From an uncultured Eggerthellaceae bacterium (GTDB lineage: Bacteria; Actinomycetota; Coriobacteriia; Coriobacteriales; Eggerthellaceae): a DNA stretch of 64,000 bases. The notes under the pieces are model-generated. The model was not told where the DNA came from. It did no database searches and saw nothing but the letters and a program-made list of their open reading frames with translations. The DNA is taken from positions 2,606 to 66,605 of the forward strand of contig CAJUQH010000009.1 of assembly GCA_910588095.1 (NCBI GenBank). The letters run 5' to 3'. The translations under genes were made by a program, and so were the position numbers. Of the stretch, positions 1,254-50,337 are shown piece by piece (the first letter of the stretch is position 1; every line of letters begins with the position of its first letter).

Positions 1254-2555
1254 ATGCTACGAAGGAAGGCCGAAAAGGCCCTGGCGGAGTGGAAAGCCTC
1301 CGGAGCGAACGAGGCGGTGCTGGTTACGGGCGCTCGCCAGGTGGGGAAGTCTTATCTGGTAGAGGAGTTTGCCCGGCAAAACTATTCCCATGTGGTGAAG
1401 TTCGACCTGATTGACCAGGCCGATGTCCGCGACGCGATGAATGGCGTTCGCAATGCGCAAGAGCTTTTCATGGTGCTATCTGCCTTTGCGGGAACGCAGT
1501 TCGTTCCTGGCGAGACGGCCGTCATCATCGATGAGATTCAAGAATGCGACCAGGCCATCACTCTTATCAAGTATCTTGTCCAACGCCAAGATTTCGACTA
1601 CCTCCTTTCAGGCTCTCTCTTGGGCGTGGAATTGAATGATGTGCGCTCTGTGCCAGTTGGGTATTTGCGCATAGTGGAGATGTTTCCCCTGGATTTCCAG
1701 GAGTTCTGCTGGGCCAATGGGGTAGGTGAAGATGCATGGCTGGAGATAGAGAAGGCATTCCAGCATAGACGGCCGGTGCAGACAGCCGTGCATGAGCGCT
1801 TTCTCACATTGTTCCATTGGTACCTTGTAGTGGGCGGCATGCCACGGGCGGTAGGCGAATTCGTGAAAACAAGCGACATAGCAGCCGTGAACGCGATCCA
1901 GAAAGACATTCTTGCCCTCTACCGCATCGATATCTCAAAGTACGCTGAACGTGGCAAGAGGCTGGCTATCCGCGAGATATTCGACCAGCTGCCTTCGCAG
2001 CTCGATTCCCAATCGAAGCGCTTTAACTTTTCTGCATTGGCCCCACGGGGAACTTACGAGCGTTATACGACGGATTTCGTCTGGATGGTTGATGCGAGTG
2101 TGGTTATCGTGGTGCGCAACGTAAAGGAGCCAAAACGGCCGCTGCGTCTGATGGAAGATAGGAGCTTCTTCAAGCTATTCATGAACGATGTGGGGTTGCT
2201 GAGCGCAGCTTGCGGAATGGATGCAGTTCGTAGTTTGGTCTCGGATGATTTCGCGGTGGCATATGGCGCCATCTACGAGAACGCTGTGGCGCAGGAGCTT
2301 CACGCACACGGCGTGGGTGGCTTTTTCTTCCGCAATCGCAAGCAAGGTGAGATAGATTTTTTGGTGGGGACGTCCTCGAAGGTTCTGCCAATCGAGGTTA
2401 AATCGGGCAAGGATTATAAACGCCACAATGCGCTGCGTAACGTTCTTGCGGTTCCGAATTATGGCATCGATGAGGGGATCGTCTTGTGCGAGAAGAACCT
2501 GCATGTTGATGGGCAGGTTATCTATTGTCCCGCTTACATGGTGGCGCTCATCTAA
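1254..2555 (+). CDS. AAA+ ATPase of the DUF4143 / COG1373 type, with a PD-(D/E)xK-like C-terminal region
   Basis: Walker A 'GARQVGKS', Walker B 'VIIDEIQ', C-terminal 'GEIDFLV...PIEVKSGKDY'. ATG 1254 is preceded by AGGGGTG; the track ORF opens at TTG 1212. Confidence 0.8.
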   Translation: MLRRKAEKALAEWKASGANEAVLVTGARQVGKSYLVEEFARQNYSHVVKFDLIDQADVRDAMNGVRNAQELFMVLSAFAGTQFVPGETAVIIDEIQECDQAITLIKYLVQRQDFDYLLSGSLLGVELNDVRSVPVGYLRIVEMFPLDFQEFCWANGVGEDAWLEIEKAFQHRRPVQTAVHERFLTLFHWYLVVGGMPRAVGEFVKTSDIAAVNAIQKDILALYRIDISKYAERGKRLAIREIFDQLPSQLDSQSKRFNFSALAPRGTYERYTTDFVWMVDASVVIVVRNVKEPKRPLRLMEDRSFFKLFMNDVGLLSAACGMDAVRSLVSDDFAVAYGAIYENAVAQELHAHGVGGFFFRNRKQGEIDFLVGTSSKVLPIEVKSGKDYKRHNALRNVLAVPNYGIDEGIVLCEKNLHVDGQVIYCPAYMVALI

Positions 2556-7978: not shown

Positions 7979-8890
7979 ATGCTCGAACCGCTCGTGCGGG
8001 AATACCTGGCCTACCTGCGCATCGAGCGCGGCTGCTCGCCCCTTACCAGCGAAGCCTACGGGCGCGACCTGGCCGGCTACGCCGCCTTCCTCGAAGGATG
8101 CGGCATCGCCGAGCCGGCCGGCATCGACCGCGCCGTGCTGGTGGACTACGAGGCATCGCTGGTCGAGCAGGGCTTCGCGCCCACCACGGTGAAGCGCCGC
8201 GTGTCGGTGCTGAAGGGCTTCCACCGCTACCTGGTGCGCGAGGGCTACACCTCCAAGAACCCTGCCGACGCCGTGAGCCTGCCGAAGGTGCCCGAGCGCC
8301 TGCCCGACGTGCTGAGCATCGACGAGGTGGGCCGCATGCTGGACGCTCACATAGACCCCAGCCCCACGGGCCTGCGCGACCGCGCGCTGCTGGAAGTGCT
8401 CTACGGTTGCGGCCTGCGCGTGAGCGAAGCAGCCGGGCTCGACACGGGCGACGTGTTCATGGAGGAAGGCTTCGTGCGCGTGCTGGGCAAGGGCAGCAAA
8501 GAGCGCATCGCCCCCATCGCAGGGAAGGCCGCTGAGTGCCTGAGCGCCTACCTGGCCGAGGCGCGGCCGCCGCTCAGCCGCAAGGCGACCAAGGTGAAGC
8601 CGGCCGATGTGTCGGCCGTGTTCCTGAACGCGCGCGGCGGGCGCCTGACGCGCCAGAGCATCCACGCCATCGTGGCGAAGGCGGGCACCGCCATCGGCCG
8701 CGAGGGCCTGCACCCCCACACGCTGCGCCACTCATTCGCCACGCACATGCTCGAAGGCGGCGCCGACCTGCGCGTCATCCAGGAGATGCTGGGCCATTCC
8801 GACATATCCACCACCCAGATATACACCCACATCGATCGCAGCCACCTGCAAGCGGAATACGTGAGCGCCCACCCCCGCGCCAAGCGATAA
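7979..8890 (+). CDS. xerD: Site-specific tyrosine recombinase, XerC/XerD family
   Basis: 303 aa. 'HPHTLRHSFATHMLEGGADLRVIQEMLGHSDISTTQIYTH' contains the R..HxxR..Y catalytic pattern. XerC cannot be distinguished from XerD by eye. Confidence 0.8.
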   Translation: MLEPLVREYLAYLRIERGCSPLTSEAYGRDLAGYAAFLEGCGIAEPAGIDRAVLVDYEASLVEQGFAPTTVKRRVSVLKGFHRYLVREGYTSKNPADAVSLPKVPERLPDVLSIDEVGRMLDAHIDPSPTGLRDRALLEVLYGCGLRVSEAAGLDTGDVFMEEGFVRVLGKGSKERIAPIAGKAAECLSAYLAEARPPLSRKATKVKPADVSAVFLNARGGRLTRQSIHAIVAKAGTAIGREGLHPHTLRHSFATHMLEGGADLRVIQEMLGHSDISTTQIYTHIDRSHLQAEYVSAHPRAKR

Positions 8891-41762: not shown

Positions 41763-42205
41763 GGATGCTGCTGCTGAACGGCCCGAACCTTAACATGCTG
41801 GGCGTGCGCGACCCGGCCATATACGGCACCGATACGCTGGAGGCCATCGAGCAGATGGTGGTCGACCATGGCGCCGAGCGCGGCGTGCAGGTGGACTGCT
41901 TCCAGTCGAACCACGAAGGGGCCCTGGTCGATCGCCTGCACCAGGCGCACGGCCGCTACGACGGCATCGTGTACAACCCCGGCGCCCATACCCACTACTC
42001 CTATGCCCTGCATGACGCCGTCGAATGCATCGACGTGCCGGTGGTGGAGGTGCACATATCCGACATCTCGAAGCGCGAGGAGTTCCGGCGCCACTCGGTC
42101 ATCGCGTCGGCGTGCGTCGCCCAGGTGAAGGGCAAGGGCAAGGCAGGCTACCTCGATGCGCTCGACCTGCTTGTGGACCGGGCGGCGGAAAGCGACGAGG
42201 CGTGA
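41756..42205 (+). CDS. aroQ: Type II 3-dehydroquinate dehydratase
   Basis: 'LLLNGPNLNMLGVRDPAIYG', 'EVHISDISKREEFRRHS'. Confidence 0.9.
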   Translation: MLRMLLLNGPNLNMLGVRDPAIYGTDTLEAIEQMVVDHGAERGVQVDCFQSNHEGALVDRLHQAHGRYDGIVYNPGAHTHYSYALHDAVECIDVPVVEVHISDISKREEFRRHSVIASACVAQVKGKGKAGYLDALDLLVDRAAESDEA

Positions 42206-43407
42206 GCGCAGAAGCGGCCGCTGAGCGGCTCGCCCAGCTGCGGGAGGCCAGCGCGCGCTTGGGCGCGGGGGCCTTCCTCGTGCGCGACACTTCGAACATC
42301 GTGTGGCTGACCGCCTTCGACGACGTGTTCGACGACGAGCCGGCCCATGCTCTGTATGTGTGTCCCCAGCACGCGTGGCTGCATACCGATTCGCGCTACT
42401 CCGGTGCCTGCGAGGCAGCCGCTGTGGGCGGTCCCGTGCAGGTGAGCACGCGCAAGGGAGGCCATGCCGCCTTCGCGGCGCACCAGTGGGCAGGTCGCCC
42501 GGTTCATGCTGCCGATGCGCGGCTGGGCATCGAGGATGCCATCGCGCTTTCCGAGTACCGGGCGCTGCAGCGGGCCTTCGCTGCGGAAGGCGTGGCCCAC
42601 GAGGCGGGACGGCAGGCTGCGAGCACGGCCGATGGCGCTGGTGATGCCGCTGTGGCTTCCGCGGGTCCGACGGCTGACGGCCCGTTCATCGAGACCGATG
42701 GCGTGGTGCTGCGGCTGCGAGCGGTGAAGGATGCCGGCGAGCTGGAGCGCATGCGTGCCGCTCAAGCCATCACCGATGCCGCCTTCGCCCACATCATAGG
42801 GTTCATGGCGCCGGGCATGACCGAACGCCAGGTGCAGCTGGAGCTCGACGACTTCATGCTCAAGCACGGCGCCGACGGGCTCGCGTTCCCGAGCATCGTG
42901 GCCACGGGCCCCAACGGTGCGAACCCCCATGCCATCCCTAGCAGCACGGTGCTGGAAGCAGGCCAGTGCGTCGTGATGGACTTCGGCGCGCGGGCGCGCG
43001 GCTACTGCTCGGACATGACGCGCACTGTGTTCCTGGGTACCCCCGAGGGCGACATGCTGCGGGCGTGGGAGACGCTGCGGCGTGCCAACGAGCAGGTGCA
43101 GGAGAGCATTCGCCCGGGCGTGACGGGGAAAGAATGCCACGAGCTGGCCGAGCGCATCCTGGCCGAAGGCGGCTTTGCGGGCGCTATGGGCCACGGGCTG
43201 GGCCATGGAGTAGGCATCGACATCCACGAGCTGCCGGTGCTCAACCCGCGCAACGACCAGCCGCTTCAGGCAGGCAACGTGGTCACCGTGGAGCCGGGCA
43301 TCTATCTGGCTGATCGCTTCGGCATGAGGCTGGAGGACTGCGGCGTGGTGACCGAGCGCGGCTTCGACCGCTTCACCCAGTCCACCCACGACATGGTGGT
43401 GCTGTAA
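42202..43407 (+). CDS. pepP: M24-family Xaa-Pro aminopeptidase
   Basis: 'VVMDFGARARGYCSDMTRT', 'HGLGHGVGIDIHE', 'VVTVEPGIY'. GTGA overlap with aroQ. Confidence 0.8.
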   Translation: MSAEAAAERLAQLREASARLGAGAFLVRDTSNIVWLTAFDDVFDDEPAHALYVCPQHAWLHTDSRYSGACEAAAVGGPVQVSTRKGGHAAFAAHQWAGRPVHAADARLGIEDAIALSEYRALQRAFAAEGVAHEAGRQAASTADGAGDAAVASAGPTADGPFIETDGVVLRLRAVKDAGELERMRAAQAITDAAFAHIIGFMAPGMTERQVQLELDDFMLKHGADGLAFPSIVATGPNGANPHAIPSSTVLEAGQCVVMDFGARARGYCSDMTRTVFLGTPEGDMLRAWETLRRANEQVQESIRPGVTGKECHELAERILAEGGFAGAMGHGLGHGVGIDIHELPVLNPRNDQPLQAGNVVTVEPGIYLADRFGMRLEDCGVVTERGFDRFTQSTHDMVVL

Positions 43408-43439
43408 GCCGCGCATCGCCCTTGGTGCCCCACTCCCTA

Positions 43440-43454
43440 ACCAGGCAGGTTTGC
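43440..43454. repeat. Left copy of the 15-bp perfect direct repeat ACCAGGCAGGTTTGC
   Basis: Identical 15-mer at 44971..44985. The pair brackets the second DUF4143 ATPase cassette. Confidence 0.9.
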
Positions 43455-43490
43455 TGCAAATCCTATTCCGCGCCCTCTATCAGGCAAAAT

Positions 43491-43578
43491 CACGGAATTA
43501 TACGTTTTTTCGCTCATTTCATCACGAAATTATGTAATATTCCGTGGTTATCACCACGGAATTATGTAAAAATTCGTG
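43491..43578. repeat. Three phased 24-bp (imperfect) palindromes CACGRAAT-N8-ATTYCGTG at 32-bp spacing (starts 43491, 43523, 43555)
   Basis: cacggaattatacgttttttcgct / cacgaaattatgtaatattccgtg / cacggaattatgtaaaaattcgtg. The last ends 19 nt before ATG 43598. Confidence 0.8.
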
Positions 43579-43597
43579 ATATGAGGACTAGGCTACG

Positions 43598-44956
43598 ATG
43601 AAAGGGCTTCCCATGAGAAGGCATATAACTGCGAAGCTCGAAGAGTGGAAGCGCTCGCCGCGGAGGAAGCCGCTGCTGCTTCGGGGAGCTCGGCAAGTAG
43701 GGAAGACCTGGGCTCTCACTGAGTTCGGGCGTGCTTCCTATGAGAACCTGGCTTACTTCAACTTCGACCTCAACGCGGAATACAGGCAGTTCTTTCAGCT
43801 GACCAAAGACCCGCATCGTATCATGGAGAATCTGGCTGCCGCCAGCGCTCAACCTATCTTCCCCGAGAAGACCTTGATCGTGTTCGACGAGGTGCAGGCG
43901 TGTCCCGAGGCCATCGCGTCGCTCAAGTACTTCTGCGAGCAGGCACCGGACTATCACATTGCTTGCGCTGGGTCGCTGCTCGGGGTGGCTCTGTCGCATC
44001 CGGCATCTTTTCCTGTGGGCAAGGTGGACGTGATGGATATGCACCCTATGACCTTCGAGGAGTTCTTGGCTGCAGGCGACGGGGCAATCTTGGCGGCGTA
44101 TCTTAGGGGGGTTGATGCTCTTGAGCCCCTACCTGATGCGTTCTTCAACCCGCTGTTGGAGAAGCTGCGTCTCTACTTCCTGACCGGCGGCATGCCCGAA
44201 GCGGTGCTCGTGTGGCTTGAGACCCGCGATGTGGGGGCGTTGCAAGCCACGCTGAGCAACTTGCTCGACCTTTACGCGCTTGATTTCCAGAAGCACGCGC
44301 CGGAATCGCTTTTCGCGAAGATAGAGCTCGTGTGGCGGTCGATGCCCTCGCAGCTTGCGCGCGAGAACAAGAAGTTCCTCTATAGCTTGGTACGGGAAAG
44401 CGCCCGTGCCCGCGAGTACGAGGATGCTATCGAATGGCTGGTCAAGGCCGAGCTGCTGACCAAGGTGACGCGCTGCGCGAAGCCCGCCCTTCCGCTGAGC
44501 GCCTATGACGAGCCGCAGGCGTTCAAGCTGTACCTGCTCGATGTGGGTCTGCTGCGGCGGTTTTCGTCGTTGGCTCCCTCGGCCATAACGGAGGGCAACC
44601 GCCTGTTCACGGAATTCAAAGGGGCATTGACGGAGAACTTCGTGCTACAGGAGCTGCTGCCTCAGTTCGATGCGCGCCCACGCTACTGGGTTATGGATAA
44701 CCCGCGATACGAAGTGGACTTCATGGTGCAATCGGACAACGACATCGTTCCCATTGAGGTCAAGGCGGGCGAGAACGTGAAGGCGAAAAGCCTACGGAAG
44801 TATCGCGAGAAGTACGAGGCCGCAACGCCGCTGGCGGTGCGCTTCTCGCTGCGCAACCTGACGTGCGAAGGGGGCGTGCTCAATGTGCCGCTTTTCATGG
44901 CTGGCCAAACCGAGCGCTTGCTGCAGCTTGCCAAAGAAGGACCCTGCCGTCGCTAA
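43598..44956 (+). CDS. AAA+ ATPase of the DUF4143 / COG1373 type (second, divergent copy)
   Basis: Walker A 'GARQVGKT', Walker B 'IVFDEVQ', C-terminal 'YEVDFMV...PIEVKAGENVK'. Confidence 0.8.
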   Translation: MKGLPMRRHITAKLEEWKRSPRRKPLLLRGARQVGKTWALTEFGRASYENLAYFNFDLNAEYRQFFQLTKDPHRIMENLAAASAQPIFPEKTLIVFDEVQACPEAIASLKYFCEQAPDYHIACAGSLLGVALSHPASFPVGKVDVMDMHPMTFEEFLAAGDGAILAAYLRGVDALEPLPDAFFNPLLEKLRLYFLTGGMPEAVLVWLETRDVGALQATLSNLLDLYALDFQKHAPESLFAKIELVWRSMPSQLARENKKFLYSLVRESARAREYEDAIEWLVKAELLTKVTRCAKPALPLSAYDEPQAFKLYLLDVGLLRRFSSLAPSAITEGNRLFTEFKGALTENFVLQELLPQFDARPRYWVMDNPRYEVDFMVQSDNDIVPIEVKAGENVKAKSLRKYREKYEAATPLAVRFSLRNLTCEGGVLNVPLFMAGQTERLLQLAKEGPCRR

Positions 44957-44970
44957 GGCTCAGACGCTTG

Positions 44971-44985
44971 ACCAGGCAGGTTTGC
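44971..44985. repeat. Right copy of the 15-bp direct repeat ACCAGGCAGGTTTGC (overlaps the -35 of the locus C promoter)
   Basis: Read directly. Confidence 0.9.
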
Positions 44986-45011
44986 GCTTTCTCTCGAAGG
45001 TGTGCTAGAGT
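44982..45011 (+). promoter_or_regulatory. Predicted promoter of surface locus C: TTGCGC-N18-TGCTAGAGT
   Basis: Same architecture as 2853..2882. Confidence 0.5.
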
Positions 45012-45128: not shown

Positions 45129-45257
45129 ATGCGAATCGGTAACGCCTTGCGGCATGCTGCCGCATCATCTTTCGGCATAGCCTTGTCTATCATGTTGGCT
45201 TCAAGCCTGCTGCCCGCTGACGCCTTGGCAGAAGGCGTGGGGGGGGTAGCCCTCTAA
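45129..45257 (+). other. Detached signal-peptide ORF of surface locus C (42 codons), out of frame with the body
   Basis: MRIGNALRHAAASSFGIALSIMLASSLLPADALAEGVGGVAL*. RBS GGGAAGGAAG upstream. Runs through the G8 tract and stops at TAA 45255..45257. Confidence 0.75.
45239..45246 (+). repeat. G8 homopolymer at the signal-peptide/mature-protein junction (candidate phase-variation tract)
   Basis: Read directly. I translated the body frame codon by codon from 45239 to 45431 and found no stop. Confidence 0.95.
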
Positions 45258-45430
45258 GCCAAAGCGAACCAGATCCTGGTTCGGAGGTCCCTTCAGCCTC
45301 TGAAGAAGCTGCGGAAGGCGCCGCTGCGGATGGCGGTGCAGGCGCTGATGCGGAAGGCGGGCCTTCCGTCACCCTGAGCGAAGGGGCCGCAGGCCCCGCA
45401 GTCGAAGAATCCAGTTCAAAACTACAAACC

Positions 45431-48400
45431 TTGGCCTCTGCCCTTGCGGGCAAGCCCGCCGCGTTCGTCAACGCCGATGTCGCCCTCGATGGTGAGCCTA
45501 TTGTGGGCTCCTTCACCGTCGATGGTTTGACCTTCGCGGTCACAGGGGAATCCCACGTCGAGCTCGTCGGGGTTGCCCCTTCCGTCACCTTGAGCGGAGC
45601 TGCCGAAGGCGGCGAAGCCGAAGGGCCCGATGAAGGCCACGCCAGCGAAGCTAGCGTCGCCAACCTCACCCTCCCCGGATCCGTCACCTACTCCGACACT
45701 GACTACGCCCTCGCCTCCATTGGCGCCTACGCGTTCTACCTCTCGGGCGTGGCCGATGTCATGCTGCCCGCAAGCGTGAACGATGTTGATGACCGTGCGT
45801 TCCGCTCGAGCGACGTCGCCAACGTCACCGTCGCCGACGGCAACCCCAGCTTCTCCTCCTACGACGGCGTCCTCTACGACGCCACCCGATCAAGCCTCCT
45901 GCTCATTCCCGGGGGCAGGCAGGGCGCTGTCCGCATCTCCGACAAGGCCGAGGAGGTGGACGCGTCGGCCTTCTCGCATTGTGCTGGCGTGGATTCGATC
46001 TCGGTCGATGCGGGCAGCGCGCACCTCTCCTCCTGGGAAGGACTCCTATACGATGCCGATGGCACGACGCTCCTGCGCGTGCCGGCAGGCGCCACCGACA
46101 TCACCATACGAGAGGGCTGCACGACCATAGCCGCCGGCGCCATGGAGGGCTGCGCGAGCCTTGAGCGCATCAACGCACCATCGACCGTGACCTCCATCAG
46201 CCCGGATGTGTTCCATGCGCTGCCAACAGTGAGCCTGCCAGCCGCCGCTTTTGCAAAGGAGGCAACGCAGCTCACGGCCATGGTTGCCTTGTCCGCTACC
46301 GGGGAGGATTCCCCACGAATAGACCCGAGCACCATTTTCGTCACAGTGCCTTCTGAGGCCAATGCGATGCTATGGCGCAAGGTTGGGCTCGTGCTTGCAT
46401 CAAACGCCTTGGTTGATGCAGATGAGCCAGCTGCCCAATCGCCAGCTCTATTTGGAGCACCGCGTGTTGCCGGCTATGATTCGACTGCGAATTTCAGCAG
46501 TGTTTTGGGTGGTGGAAATGCTCAATGGTCTTTCAATTCCTCTAGTGGCAATCTGACGATTTGCTGCCATGTCATGGGTGGCCGTCCTTCGATCATCGAT
46601 GATCAATTCAAGTACACTGTCGGCTCTGGTGACCGAGTCAATTACTCAGCTGTCCCTTGGTATAGCTTCAAGGATGAGATAAAGAGCATCACATTCATCG
46701 ACTTCGACGCAACGGACACGACGGCATGGTTTGCGGGCTGCCGCAACCTTGAGAGCATAAGGTTCGTTGCGCAGAACACGGCAAAGCCGCCGCTATCGTC
46801 GGTCGTTTCGACATCTCGCATGTTCGAGAGCTGTGGAAAGCTTAAGGCCATTCCCTCGAACTTTACGTTGGAGGCTTCGACGGAGCTCGTGTCGACCAAT
46901 CATATGTTCACCGATTGCGTAAGCTTGTCGGGCAGCATCCCCGCGGGTATGACGCTCACAGCAAGCGGGAAAAAGCTCGTCCAAGTGGCATGCATGTTCG
47001 CCAATTGCGTGAAGCTATCTGGCGAGATTCCTTTTACGCTAGAGAATTATGCTGGCACGGGTTTCGACTATATGTTCGCATCTTGCCGGAAGATAACCAA
47101 CATACCGTCTCGTTTCACGATGCCGTCTGGCGCAACCGTGACATCTGCTTTCAAGGTGACGATGGACGCGGCCGCGATTCGTGCTGGACAAGGCGATGGA
47201 AGCATCGATTTAAACGGCAAGCTGGTGACCACTTATGCGGGAACGAATAGCGTTGTCAAAGGGCTGAACTGGGACCTATGGGAACGGTCGCTTGGAACTC
47301 AGAGATATGAGATTGTGTTCAACACGAACGGGGGAAGCGGGGAATTCTACCAGACAAGGGTGGGCGCCGTTTATGGGTCGCAGCTCCTCTATAGCACTCC
47401 GGTTTACCGTCTGCCCTCTCCCGCGTTGGAGAAGACGGGGTATGGCAATTGCGACGGATGGATTCTCGGCAAAGCCACAGGCGATAAAACCCATGGGCTC
47501 GGCGCGGAGGTCTCTAACCTTACGGCTACGCCGAATGGCACCGTAACGTTCTACGCGCACTATACTCCGAACGACTATGCGATCTCGTTCGATGTCAACG
47601 GAGGCAAGGATGCTCCCAACAACAAGCCGGTCGATGCGACCGCCACATTCGATGCTGCGTTGCCGGCCATCGGCGCCAACAAGCCAGTGCGGGATGGTTA
47701 CGCTTTCAGCGGGTGGTATGACACCAGCGCCGCCACAGGCGGGAACATGTACTACGATGCGGAGAATAGGGCAGTACCGGGGAAGGCTTGGGACAAGGCC
47801 GACAATACGACCCTGTATGCGCGTTGGACGCCCAACAGCTACACCATCGCCTTCGACTCCCAGGGCGGGCCGGAGGTGGCATCCATGCAAGCGACCTATG
47901 ACTCCGATGTGACGCTGCCCCAGCCTGGTGGGCGCGAAGGCTATGCGTTCGGGAGCTGGAATACCGAAGCTGACGGAAGCGGGGCGGCTTATCAAGCCGG
48001 CATCGCTCTTGCGAAGCCCAACTTGACGACAAGCGGCACGGTTCCGCTTTATGCCCAATGGGTCGCGATCGAAGAAGCAGTCGTGCCCCTTGAGGTGACC
48101 GCGCGGGTGGACGTGCTCGGCATCGAGGACCAGACGCCAGCAACGGGCTACATCGAGTCACGCTGCGGCGAGCCGCTGAAGGTGGCCTCTGTTGAGATCA
48201 CCTCGCTGCCTGGCGCGACCGAGCTGTTCGGCGCGGGCAACGAATCCCAAGTGCAGCTTCAAGCGCTCGCAGGGGAAGGCGCCGCATGGCAGCCTGGCGG
48301 TGCCAACGCCAGCTTCTCGTTCCCGCTGGGGGCTTCCGCGACCGAATCGGACGCAGGCAAGCTGGCTGCCCTCACCATGCAAGCCTACGAGGATCGCGTC

Positions 48401-48505
48401 CCGATAAGCTACCGCTTCGCGATACCCGAGGCGCTGCTGTCCAGCCTAGCCGAAACCACCAAGCCTGTCTGCTCGGTGGCCTACACGGTGGCGCTGGTGA
48501 GCTAA
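45431..48505 (+). CDS. Large surface protein body (BspA-type LRR_5, DUF285-type 'MFxxC' repeats, Flg_new repeats, family C-terminal domain). Frameshifted relative to its signal peptide, so the full locus is 45129..48505
   Basis: 1024-aa ORF. 'IGAYAFYLSGVADVMLPASVNDVDDRAF'. 'MFESCGKLKAIPSNF / MFTDCVSLSGSIP / MFANCVKLSGEIP / MFASCRKITNIPSRF'. 'GYAFSGWYD', 'GYAFGSWNT'. C-terminus '...KPVCSVAYTVALVS'. Confidence 0.8.
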   Translation: MASALAGKPAAFVNADVALDGEPIVGSFTVDGLTFAVTGESHVELVGVAPSVTLSGAAEGGEAEGPDEGHASEASVANLTLPGSVTYSDTDYALASIGAYAFYLSGVADVMLPASVNDVDDRAFRSSDVANVTVADGNPSFSSYDGVLYDATRSSLLLIPGGRQGAVRISDKAEEVDASAFSHCAGVDSISVDAGSAHLSSWEGLLYDADGTTLLRVPAGATDITIREGCTTIAAGAMEGCASLERINAPSTVTSISPDVFHALPTVSLPAAAFAKEATQLTAMVALSATGEDSPRIDPSTIFVTVPSEANAMLWRKVGLVLASNALVDADEPAAQSPALFGAPRVAGYDSTANFSSVLGGGNAQWSFNSSSGNLTICCHVMGGRPSIIDDQFKYTVGSGDRVNYSAVPWYSFKDEIKSITFIDFDATDTTAWFAGCRNLESIRFVAQNTAKPPLSSVVSTSRMFESCGKLKAIPSNFTLEASTELVSTNHMFTDCVSLSGSIPAGMTLTASGKKLVQVACMFANCVKLSGEIPFTLENYAGTGFDYMFASCRKITNIPSRFTMPSGATVTSAFKVTMDAAAIRAGQGDGSIDLNGKLVTTYAGTNSVVKGLNWDLWERSLGTQRYEIVFNTNGGSGEFYQTRVGAVYGSQLLYSTPVYRLPSPALEKTGYGNCDGWILGKATGDKTHGLGAEVSNLTATPNGTVTFYAHYTPNDYAISFDVNGGKDAPNNKPVDATATFDAALPAIGANKPVRDGYAFSGWYDTSAATGGNMYYDAENRAVPGKAWDKADNTTLYARWTPNSYTIAFDSQGGPEVASMQATYDSDVTLPQPGGREGYAFGSWNTEADGSGAAYQAGIALAKPNLTTSGTVPLYAQWVAIEEAVVPLEVTARVDVLGIEDQTPATGYIESRCGEPLKVASVEITSLPGATELFGAGNESQVQLQALAGEGAAWQPGGANASFSFPLGASATESDAGKLAALTMQAYEDRVPISYRFAIPEALLSSLAETTKPVCSVAYTVALVS

Positions 48506-48512
48506 AATCGCT

Positions 48513-50084
48513 TTAGCGCAGGCTCACGCCCAGGAAGTCCACGCCGTCGGTGGTGAGCGGCTCGAACCCGCGCAGGTCGCTGGCGCGCCAGGTGGTGCCG
48601 GCATCGAGGAACGCCACCGGCCACAGCGGCGCCTGCTCGGCGATGATGGCGAAGCACTCCTCCCACAGCTTGCGCTGCGCGCTCTCGTCGGCAGCCTCGC
48701 GCGCCTGTCGCATGAGCGATCGCGCCTCATCGGCTGCTTCGCCGCTCCAGCGGCCCAGCCGCTCGGGCGCCACCTCGCCGCCGTAGCGCCAGGTGAGTAT
48801 CAAGTCCACGTCGAAGCCCAGCAGGGTGGGGTCGTCGAAGCACAGCGCCACGTCGAAATCCGACACGCTGCCGGCCAGGGTGCCGGGCTGCTCGCTCACC
48901 GTGGCCTTGACGCCCGCTTGCACCCAGTCGGCGCAGATGCGGTCGGCCAGCGGCCGCAGGCTCTCGTCTTGCAGGTCGAGCGCCACCGAAAGGTCTTGGG
49001 CGCCAGCCTTCTCCAGCAGCTGCCGCGCGCGCTCGGGGTCGTGGCTGTAGGCTGCCTCGGCCCGCATGTAGCCGGTGTGGGTGATGGGCAGCACGCCGGT
49101 GGGCACGGTGGCTCGGCCGCCGAGCACCTCGCTCACGGCCAGGTCGTAGTCGATGGCGTACAGCAGCGCCTGGCGCACCCGCACGTCGTCGAAGGGGGCC
49201 TTGGCGCAGTCGAACAGCACATAGGGCGATGCGAACCCGGGCACGTACTCGGTGGTCAGTCCCTCTTGGCCCACGCCCTCGCCGTCGGCAGGCATCACAT
49301 CATCGGCCACCAGCACCTCGCCTGCGGCGGCAGCGCCCAGCCGCGCCGCGCCTTCCGCCATGAAGCGCCACTCCATGGCCGAGCAGGTGGGCGGCTCGCT
49401 GCCATTGTAGTAGCCGTTGGGCAGGAACGCCATGCGGCCCTCCTCGGCCGAGAGCTCGCTTAGCAGCCAGGGACCCGTGCCCGCACCGGCCGCTGCCGCG
49501 CCCTCGGCTCCTTCGCTGGGCGGCAGCGTCACCGGCACTAGGGCCAGGCGCTCGCGCAGCAGCAAGGGCAGGGGGTAGGCCAGCGTCACGCGCACCGTGG
49601 TGTCGTCCATGGCGGCGACGGACTTGATGGGCGCCAGCAGCACGCCATAGGTGGCGTTGCTGGAGCGCAGCCGCTCGAACGCGGCGGCCACGGCCTCGGC
49701 TGTGACGGGCGCGCCGTTGCCGAACGCCGCATCGGCGCGCAGGGCCACGTCGTACACGGTGGGCGACACCTGCGTCGGCGCGCCGGCAGCCAGGCCCTCC
49801 ACGGGCTTGAAGCTGTGGGGGTCGATGTCGTAGAGCCCCTGGGCCGTGTGCCGCAGCAGCGAGAGCGCGCCGGGCGTGATGGTCCCTTCGGGCGGCAGGG
49901 CGGGCAGGGGGTAGGGAAGCGCGGCCGAAAGGCTGGTGGGCGCTGCGGGTTCGGCGGGGCCTTCTGCAGCTTGGCCGGCGCATCCAGCGATCCCAGTAGC
50001 GGCCAGCAGCGCGCCTGCGCCGGCGGCTGCCGCCACGAACTGCCGGCGGGTAAGCGGAATGGGCTGTGCCTCGTGCTTTTCCAT
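48513..50084 (-). CDS. Family-5-like ABC transporter substrate-binding lipoprotein with a Tat signal; orphan, with no adjacent permease or ATPase genes
   Basis: 'MEKHEAQPIPLTRRQFVAAAAGAGALLAATGIAGCAG' combines a twin-arginine motif and a lipobox. Size and composition are typical of peptide/nickel SBPs. The track ORF opens further upstream, at 50258. Confidence 0.6.
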   Translation of the reverse strand: MEKHEAQPIPLTRRQFVAAAAGAGALLAATGIAGCAGQAAEGPAEPAAPTSLSAALPYPLPALPPEGTITPGALSLLRHTAQGLYDIDPHSFKPVEGLAAGAPTQVSPTVYDVALRADAAFGNGAPVTAEAVAAAFERLRSSNATYGVLLAPIKSVAAMDDTTVRVTLAYPLPLLLRERLALVPVTLPPSEGAEGAAAAGAGTGPWLLSELSAEEGRMAFLPNGYYNGSEPPTCSAMEWRFMAEGAARLGAAAAGEVLVADDVMPADGEGVGQEGLTTEYVPGFASPYVLFDCAKAPFDDVRVRQALLYAIDYDLAVSEVLGGRATVPTGVLPITHTGYMRAEAAYSHDPERARQLLEKAGAQDLSVALDLQDESLRPLADRICADWVQAGVKATVSEQPGTLAGSVSDFDVALCFDDPTLLGFDVDLILTWRYGGEVAPERLGRWSGEAADEARSLMRQAREAADESAQRKLWEECFAIIAEQAPLWPVAFLDAGTTWRASDLRGFEPLTTDGVDFLGVSLR

Positions 50085-50337
50085 GGGGGCTATTCTACCG
50101 CAACGGGCTGCCATTGGCCGTCGACCGCTCGGCCCCCCATATGCCGCCGTTCGCTTGGGGCGGCTCGCCGGGCCCTTCCCACTTACCGAGCCGCACGGCC
50201 CGCGCCCTTGCCGCGGCCCCGGCAGCGCGGCGGCTCGGGGCAGCGCGGCTGGTATCATGCCAAGTGTTCTTTAGTCTTATATCTCATGAGTCTTTAAAGG
50301 GCATCCCCATGGCATTTGACCAGAAAGAGAGGAAGGT

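Follow-up and report, generated by a model that had tools for sequence, protein, structure and literature searches.

A 15-bp direct repeat around a PDC-S01-type ATPase gene as a probable footprint of one-gene cassette insertion in an uncultured Eggerthellaceae bacterium

In an uncultured Eggerthellaceae bacterium, a stretch of 64,000 nucleotides of contig CAJUQH010000009.1 (hereafter the window) contains a gene of the PDC-S01 type, encoding an ATPase-nuclease with AAA_14 and DUF4143 domains, that is located between the aminopeptidase gene pepP and a surface-protein gene (surface gene C) and is flanked on both sides by the same 15-bp sequence. It appears on balance probable that this direct repeat is the footprint of an event that placed a one-gene cassette, consisting of palindromic boxes and the PDC-S01 gene, between pepP and the surface gene. 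All features of the window described below are on the forward (+) strand, and coordinates refer to the window unless another contig or locus is named.

The direct repeat and the surface-gene promoter module

The exact 15-mer ACCAGGCAGGTTTGC is found at 43440-43454 and again at 44971-44985, the two copies being 1531 bp apart. The left copy starts at the 33rd nucleotide after the pepP stop codon (43405-43407), and the right copy at the 15th nucleotide after the ATPase stop codon (44954-44956). Between them are 1516 nt with a single open reading frame (ORF), namely the ATPase ORF (43598-44956) preceded by a repeat-rich 143-nt leader and followed by a 14-nt spacer. An earlier sequence-only reading of the window had reported these positions, distance and offsets, as well as the enclosure of nothing but the ATPase gene and its repeat-laden upstream region, and the coordinates confirm it on both counts. 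When extended to 19-mers, the left repeat (43436..43454, CCTAACCAGGCAGGTTTGC) and the right repeat (44967..44985, CTTGACCAGGCAGGTTTGC) are identical at 17 of 19 positions, with exact identity over 15 nt; beyond TTTGC the sequences that follow the two copies are unrelated. The same reading had raised the possibility that the 15-mer is a common genomic word. As the whole 2.1-Mb assembly contains only these two exact copies and a single copy with one mismatch (C17:4569), the 15-mer is not a dispersed word, and a dispersed element similar to repetitive extragenic palindromic (REP) sequences was ruled out, no solo 19-mer being found elsewhere.

The right copy belongs to a larger repeated structure. 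A BLAST search of the right flank against the genome identified surface gene C as a member of a family of dozens of paralogues, and the left edge of its promoter region is common to at least five paralogous surface genes, the other four being located at C17:39775, C17:4589, C3:27490 and C10:72033. In the alignment of these five modules, homology begins at about position 44965, approximately 5 nt to the left of the right 15-mer, and the hexamers TTGCGC and TAGAGT, separated by 18 nt, are invariant. Because the homology among paralogues starts at this point and runs through the invariant hexamers, the right copy represents the 5' edge of a promoter module that exists in multiple copies. At 44982..45011 lies the putative promoter of surface gene C (TTGCGC at 44982-44987, 18 nt, TAGAGT at 45006-45011), and the last four bases of the right 15-mer are the start of TTGCGC. 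A strict sigma-70 scan did not pick up this promoter; the same hexamer pair is carried by surface gene A. Thus the earlier statement that the right copy supplies the beginning of the TTGCGC -35 element holds, with the correction that the sequence is not private to this gene but is the module edge of at least five paralogues.

The consensus of the module edge is CCTGACCAGGCAGGTTTGC, with which the left and right 19-mers each agree in all but one of the 19 positions. Of all copies in the genome, only the left one has no module behind it and is a solo edge; the right copy is the edge of an intact module. At the four other module edges, one or two of the 15 positions differ. The right copy is preceded by the six bases CGCTTG, five of which agree with the paralogue consensus (CGCCTG).

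The probability of such a repeat was estimated from 40,000 random intervals of 1359 bp in this genome, the upstream flank of each (200 nt) being compared with its downstream flank (60 nt). In 16 of them (4e-4) the flanks shared an exact direct repeat of at least 15 nt; when the flanks were widened to 630 nt, this was so in 1.4% of 3,000 random intervals. Coincidence, with the 15-mer occurring twice by chance and the ATPase gene arriving by an unrelated route, would be easier to accept at the wider flanks, and rare coincidences are to be expected across very many windows, particularly in a repeat-rich genome of 65% GC. It is nevertheless very unlikely given flanks as narrow as those observed, the fit of the left copy to the module consensus over 18 of 19 nt, that is, beyond the 15 identical ones, and the recurrence of the same layout elsewhere in the gene family (see below). 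The assessment of the sequence-only reading, that chance duplication was very unlikely, therefore agrees with the narrow-flank estimate and is weaker at 630 nt.

Acquisition of the ATPase gene as a unit

The enclosed gene (43598..44956) encodes a protein of 452 aa with an AAA_14 domain (PF13173, E 2.2e-27), in which the Walker A (GARQVGKT) and Walker B (LIVFDEVQ) motifs are intact, and a DUF4143 domain (PF13635, E 1.5e-33) with an intact D...ExK nuclease motif (EVDF...IEVK). It matches the PADLOC model of PDC-S01 over its full length (PDLC04786, E 1.4e-174, residues 6-440 on profile positions 3-434 of 439), and from these matches it is regarded as a candidate anti-phage defence gene. No NCBIfam name was assigned, and a sequence search returned no relative of solved structure. 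DUF4143 has been assigned to the PD-(D/E)XK superfamily (PMC3424549). PDC-S01 is a single-gene phage defence candidate of PADLOC (COG1373) and, according to one survey, the fourth most common defence call across prokaryotes (PMC12988326). In the same survey, most phage-defence candidates are described as still awaiting validation, and the tested ones that are named do not include PDC-S01; repeated crossing between domains is reported there and in a second survey (PMC12988326; PMC13356809).

The base composition of the ATPase gene departs from that of its surroundings. Its GC content is 59.5%, with a GC fraction at third codon positions (GC3) of 0.76, as compared with 69% (GC3 0.83) for pepP, 72% (GC3 0.91) for DHQS and 64.7% for the genome, so that it lies about 10 GC points below its housekeeping neighbours. 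There are only two other DUF4143 genes in this genome; since they are merely 30% and 43% identical to the ATPase, a multi-copy mobile element within the genome was ruled out. The best database relatives, at 77-79% identity, are solitary genes amid unrelated housekeeping genes. Both close relatives (L031, L032) carry the same palindromic box pair upstream, and DNA homology with them spans only 43521 to approximately 44907, that is, the boxes and the ORF; the leader at 43455-43520 is not common to the nearest homologues. Many homologues of 62-64% identity bear source names from other phyla, and those below 60% identity were found on 62 plasmids. Within Coriobacteriales, 101 of the 151 species genomes contain relatives of the ATPase, individual genomes having as many as 11 matches or more. 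Scans of metagenomes and genomes with the ATPase yielded 19 and 25 loci, respectively, with no close relatives among them.

The gene order of related genomes was also informative. In a sister species of the same genus (G002), a 488-nt spacer without an ATPase gene separates pepP from the next gene, which belongs to the surface family; the promoter of that surface gene, TTGCAA-N17-TAGACT, likewise forms the edge of a paralogue family with 40 copies. In another genome (G001), the gene after pepP is a different one. The interpretation of the ATPase gene and its control region as a discrete, horizontally acquired one-gene cassette is supported. The sequence-only reading had proposed a discrete, possibly mobile cassette of about 1.5 kb: its discreteness is upheld by the genomic contexts of the homologues, by the homology confined to boxes and ORF and by the arrangement in G002, whereas no sign of present mobility was seen.

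The extent of this homology also bears on another role for the 15-mer, that of a binding site, overlapping part of a -35 element, through which the ATPase gene and the surface gene would be co-regulated. The motif does overlap a -35-like hexamer at both places (TTGCTG on the left, TTGCGC on the right), and the module edge is conserved in five paralogues. However, no convincing -10 element follows the left copy, the nearest ATPase homologues lack the motif, their conserved upstream DNA starting only at the boxes, and the conservation of the edge is no higher than that of the rest of a recently duplicated module. A shared regulatory site is thus highly improbable.

As a separate observation on the distribution of these genes, many DUF4143 matches in Coriobacteriales lie within about 120-200 nt of a contig end (for example G062:C63:138, G085:C15:162, G134:C40:166 and G146:C33:144), and a contig in G062 begins inside the repeat flanking an orthologue of the gene at locus L096. 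Assemblies seem to break at the edges of DUF4143 cassettes.

Flanking repeats at other DUF4143 loci

For 62 other DUF4143 genes, the 600 nt upstream were compared with the 600 nt downstream by ungapped scoring with a threshold of at least 21. Flanking direct repeats at or above this score, 25 to 146 nt long, were found at eight of the 62 loci: 146 nt with 93% identity (L103), 81 nt without mismatch (L085), 77 nt with three mismatches (L086), 54 nt with two (L083), 46 nt with five (L031; 46-52 nt, 85-89% identical), 45 nt with three (L096), 29 nt with one (L041) and 25 nt with one (L045). At the same loci, reversed flanks scored at most 14 and inverted flanks at most 17, and none of 104 control intervals shifted by 2-3.4 kb reached 14. 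As L083, L085 and L086 are related, the eight cases correspond to about six independent events. The search for direct repeats around other DUF4143 genes that had been recommended in the sequence-only reading thus gave positive cases.

The repeated DNA varies by locus, being the 3' end of a neighbouring gene at L103 and L041 and the gene's own box region at L085. The positions are more uniform: the right repeat usually begins 0-40 nt after the DUF4143 stop codon, as at the present locus, and the left repeat ends about 110-150 nt before the DUF4143 start, which leaves just enough room for the boxes. The flanks of L103 (G136) and L096 (G115) are not syntenic in species representatives, and no clean empty site was found there. 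At L085 (G078:C66), a relative of 54% identity, perfect copies of the box region including the start codon are located at 1419-1499 and 2863-2943 of the reverse-complemented locus, the second copy being followed by a terminator-like hairpin and no gene.

The same layout is observed around a second DUF4143 gene of the window, ATPase 1 (1254-2555), which lies between the imperfect copies of a direct repeat about 56 nt long (1046-1101 and 2584-2639, approximately 86% identical). This repeat consists of the 3' end and stop codon of the upstream surface gene, and its downstream copy lacks a gene body. ATPase 1 is fixed in 23 of 23 contigs. An overlap of GGTTTGC with the GGTTTGCAAAAT boxes of ATPase 1 was considered and, at 7 nt, judged too short to be meaningful.

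These loci are also relevant to a reading by substitution, in which pepP once stood before two tandem surface-gene units and either the cassette or a nearby deletion replaced the first unit except for a module edge of about 19 nt. The two 15-mers would then be paralogous module edges and not a target duplication. The surface genes form a very large, often tandem family and all three DUF4143 genes of the genome abut them; moreover, the bases that precede the right copy agree with the paralogue consensus, and the truncated surface-gene 3' end behind ATPase 1 is about as similar to other paralogues (88-90%) as to the adjacent gene (84-89%). Substitution, however, needs two independent breakpoints, one of them within about 20 nt of the edge of the next module. 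The two copies are identical over 15 nt, at which every other paralogue differs at one or two positions, and the flanking repeats at unrelated DUF4143 loci without multigene families are left unexplained. A replaced surface-gene unit is thus possible but unlikely.

Mode of insertion

The cassette contains no transposase ORF, and no terminal inverted repeats are present around it. Together with its single copy and the range of repeat lengths among relatives (15-146 nt), these properties do not fit a classical DNA transposon or insertion sequence. An integrase-mediated islet is likewise not indicated, there being no integrase nearby and no tRNA in the window. The lack of transposase, integrase and terminal inverted repeats remarked upon in the sequence-only reading was borne out, the nearest tyrosine recombinase being 35 kb away (approximately 8312-8839). 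A site-specific recombinase could have acted in trans, encoded elsewhere in the genome or on a helper since lost, with the 15-mer as the core of an attachment site. The length of 15 bp is typical of such cores, and six tyrosine-recombinase homologues are encoded in the genome, of which the two best matches are presumably XerC/XerD-like; a serine recombinase was not found in the genome. The absence of any recombinase within 35 kb and of a tRNA target speaks against it, and the different lengths (15-146 nt) and sequences of the repeats in relatives do not fit one enzyme with one core. Of the two origins suggested in the sequence-only reading, a target duplication is accordingly retained as the somewhat better than even choice, whereas a site-specific recombination scar is disfavoured as highly improbable.

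For the target duplication, it is plausible that the cassette entered the surface-gene promoter module about 19 nt from its 5' edge. The module edge CCTGACCAGGCAGGTTTGC would have been duplicated to both sides, with 15 nt still identical, so that the right side would have kept a complete surface promoter and the left side only an isolated edge. The cassette itself carries no recombinase. A circular or looped copy of it bearing a short module edge may have been joined to the chromosome by host recombination, a single crossover through the short homology resulting in a Campbell-type insertion-duplication. A host crossover is favoured over the cut of a transposase with fixed stagger because the repeats of the relatives vary in length between 15 and 146 nt and the longer repeats are not perfect. 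The module edge borne by the incoming cassette may stem from an earlier location next to another paralogue. If the repeats mediated mobility, the expected empty-site junction would be ...CTCCCTAACCAGGCAGGTTTGC joined to GCTTTCTCTCG..., and the junction of an excised circle would read ...GGCTCAGACGCTTG, the 15-mer, TGCAAATCC....

Several observations weigh against this interpretation. A simple target duplication does not predict the match of CGCTTG to CGCCTG at five of six positions unless the edge was picked up elsewhere; the match is accounted for if the incoming cassette carried the module edge of another paralogue. A repeat of 15-19 nt is at the low limit for RecA-dependent recombination and is below the 30-bp criterion that is applied to insertions of restriction-modification genes (see below). 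The cassette has no conserved termini. No empty site was found that aligns with both flanks at the nucleotide level, the G002 spacer being too diverged. In each of the 24 contigs examined for the exact pepP, and of the 23 examined for the exact ATPase gene, the site is occupied and both 15-mers are present. A strain whose pepP is 97% identical is occupied as well; its left copy reads CCCTGGCCAGGCAGGTTTGC and is followed by the ATPase leader. A contig with 80% identical pepP ends 10 nt after the stop codon and is uninformative on the site.

Since G002 lacks the ATPase gene and all contigs of the species are occupied, the cassette is an indel at the genus level that is fixed in the species as sampled. 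The insertion event is old at the scale of the species, and the cassette is fixed and not detectably mobile now. As to the empty site for which the sequence-only reading had recommended a search, the ATPase gene is absent between pepP and the surface gene in G002, yet there is no alignable empty-site allele.

A more far-reaching proposal is that PDC-S01 genes are autonomous one-gene mobile cassettes, in which the ATPase-nuclease would bind its own boxes and promote excision and insertion with target duplications of variable length. This is considered quite unlikely. If true, the ranking of PDC-S01 as the fourth most common 'defence' call would partly reflect selfish spread and not only defence, and the 15-mer would be one footprint of this activity.

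Comparison with known systems

Insertion with long target duplication was reportedly described for restriction-modification gene complexes by Nobusato et al. in 2000. The present locus resembles such insertions in that a nuclease gene of defence type, with neither transposase nor integrase, lies between host genes and is bracketed by a direct repeat of otherwise unique host sequence, and also in the repeat itself, which varies in length from case to case and often overlaps a gene end or a promoter. In contrast to the restriction-modification pairs inserted there, the gene here encodes a PDC-S01 ATPase-nuclease; a further difference is that the right copy derives from a multi-copy module. Such insertions are the nearest published counterpart: the defence genes concerned have no mobility genes with them, and the host sequence on either side of them is unique and differs in length between cases (PMC2853133). 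The criteria of Furuta, Abe and Kobayashi (2010) comprise an insert of less than 20 kb, a repeat of more than 30 bp, a related genome without the insert, in which a single repeat copy aligns with both flanks, and a repeat that is otherwise unique (PMC2853133). Here, the insert is 1516 nt long without a mobility gene and the repeat is absent elsewhere in the genome, with two exact copies, but the repeat is not longer than 30 bp, being exact over 15 nt and identical at 17 of 19 positions as a 19-mer. The mode of insertion itself is already known and was proposed long ago for restriction-modification genes.

Campbell-type integration via short homology, or homology-facilitated illegitimate recombination, duplicates exactly the shared segment, whatever its length. 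Imperfect repeats are expected from it if donor and recipient differ, as at L103 (146 nt, 93%) and L031 (46-52 nt, 85-89%). The present case departs from this scheme in three respects: no circular form was seen, 15-19 nt is very short for a RecA crossover, and the origin of the first repeat is left unexplained. Integron cassettes offer a further comparison, as they too are one-gene units tightly bounded at the 3' end of the ORF that are gained and lost as a unit. The locus is unlike them in having no array and no common attachment site and in carrying its own promoter and boxes. As for an integron integrase, there is no tyrosine recombinase within 35 kb, and the 14-nt spacer leaves no room for an attC site, which was not the object of a specific search.

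The gene itself agrees with the PDC-S01 genes already surveyed in its domain pair, its full-length hidden Markov model match, its solitary position and its patchy distribution across phyla, which indicates frequent transfer (PMC12988326, PMC13356809). In the accessible text of the surveys the gene is counted, and insertion, flanking repeats and palindromic boxes are not described. PDC-S01 is among the most frequently called candidate defence genes, and the searchable papers are silent on how it moves. The present locus is a weak case of a PDC-S01 gene bracketed by a duplicated target, with a short repeat and no alignable empty site, and alone it proves little. Taken together with the recurrence among the 62 relatives, it supports the spread of single defence-type genes as cassettes of promoter plus ORF without a recombinase of their own. 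The duplicated piece is a promoter edge, and the promoter of the neighbouring, putatively phase-variable surface gene was kept intact.

Features of the locus and additional observations

On the left, the site is bordered by pepP (42202..43407), which encodes an M24 Xaa-Pro aminopeptidase (Pfam Peptidase_M24 and Creatinase_N; 401 aa in public contigs). It is the last gene of an aro-pepP block conserved in relatives, and forms the left flank of the insertion. Downstream of the left repeat, the cassette-specific leader (43455..43520) contains one degenerate box (approximately 43488-43512) and the repeat families D2, D6 and I2. It is followed by two palindromic boxes (43521..43580) of the form ATCACGRAATTATGTA..TTCGTGAT at a spacing of 32 bp, which make up the inverted repeat I1 and are located directly upstream of the ATPase start. 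These boxes presumably serve as an operator and promoter that move together with the ATPase gene. No terminator was predicted in the 14-nt spacer between the ATPase stop codon and the right repeat (44957..44970); scans of the locus with Rfam, tRNA and sigma-70 models gave nothing useful, and terminator-like sites were no more numerous than in shuffled sequences.

Each of the three DUF4143 genes in the genome (C3:45478-47080; window 1254-2555 and 43598-44956) directly adjoins a surface-family gene and has private repeated boxes just upstream, namely CTATGAAAATGTG in three copies, GGTTTGCAAAAT in four copies and ATCACGRAATTATG palindromes across the three loci. Some strain differences were noted within the cassette. 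In a divergent strain (L060, 3262-3410, corresponding to window 43408-43560), one of the 32-bp box repeats preceding the ATPase gene is apparently missing, and the left repeat carries two substitutions at its left end. In another strain (L027), 15 differences are concentrated within 55 nt of the ATPase gene (44080-44134), the surrounding kilobases being identical; this patch has the appearance of a short tract introduced by recombination with a divergent DUF4143 allele.

Surface gene C (45130..48505) encodes a protein with BspA-type leucine-rich repeats (LRR) and Flg_new repeats (Pfam). Its signal-peptide start at 45130 is separated from the main frame (45431-48505) by a G8 tract at 45239-45246, and a C10 tract (2843-2852) abuts the -35 element of surface gene A. 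Called gene lengths vary by strain, with 1246 aa versus 832 and 126 aa for surface gene A and 56, 91 or 107 aa for a small helix-turn-helix (HTH) gene. Such homopolymer tracts and strain-variable gene lengths fit phase variation. In one strain (L025/L029), the surface gene that follows the cassette encodes 749 aa instead of 1024 aa (equivalent to window approximately 45431-50300), and a HepT/MNT toxin-antitoxin pair together with another surface gene is found in place of the SBP_bac_5 gene. Because this strain differs there, the region to the right of the cassette represents a variable zone. In the comparison with L027, the 5' part of the surface gene contains a second divergent patch (45360-45433).

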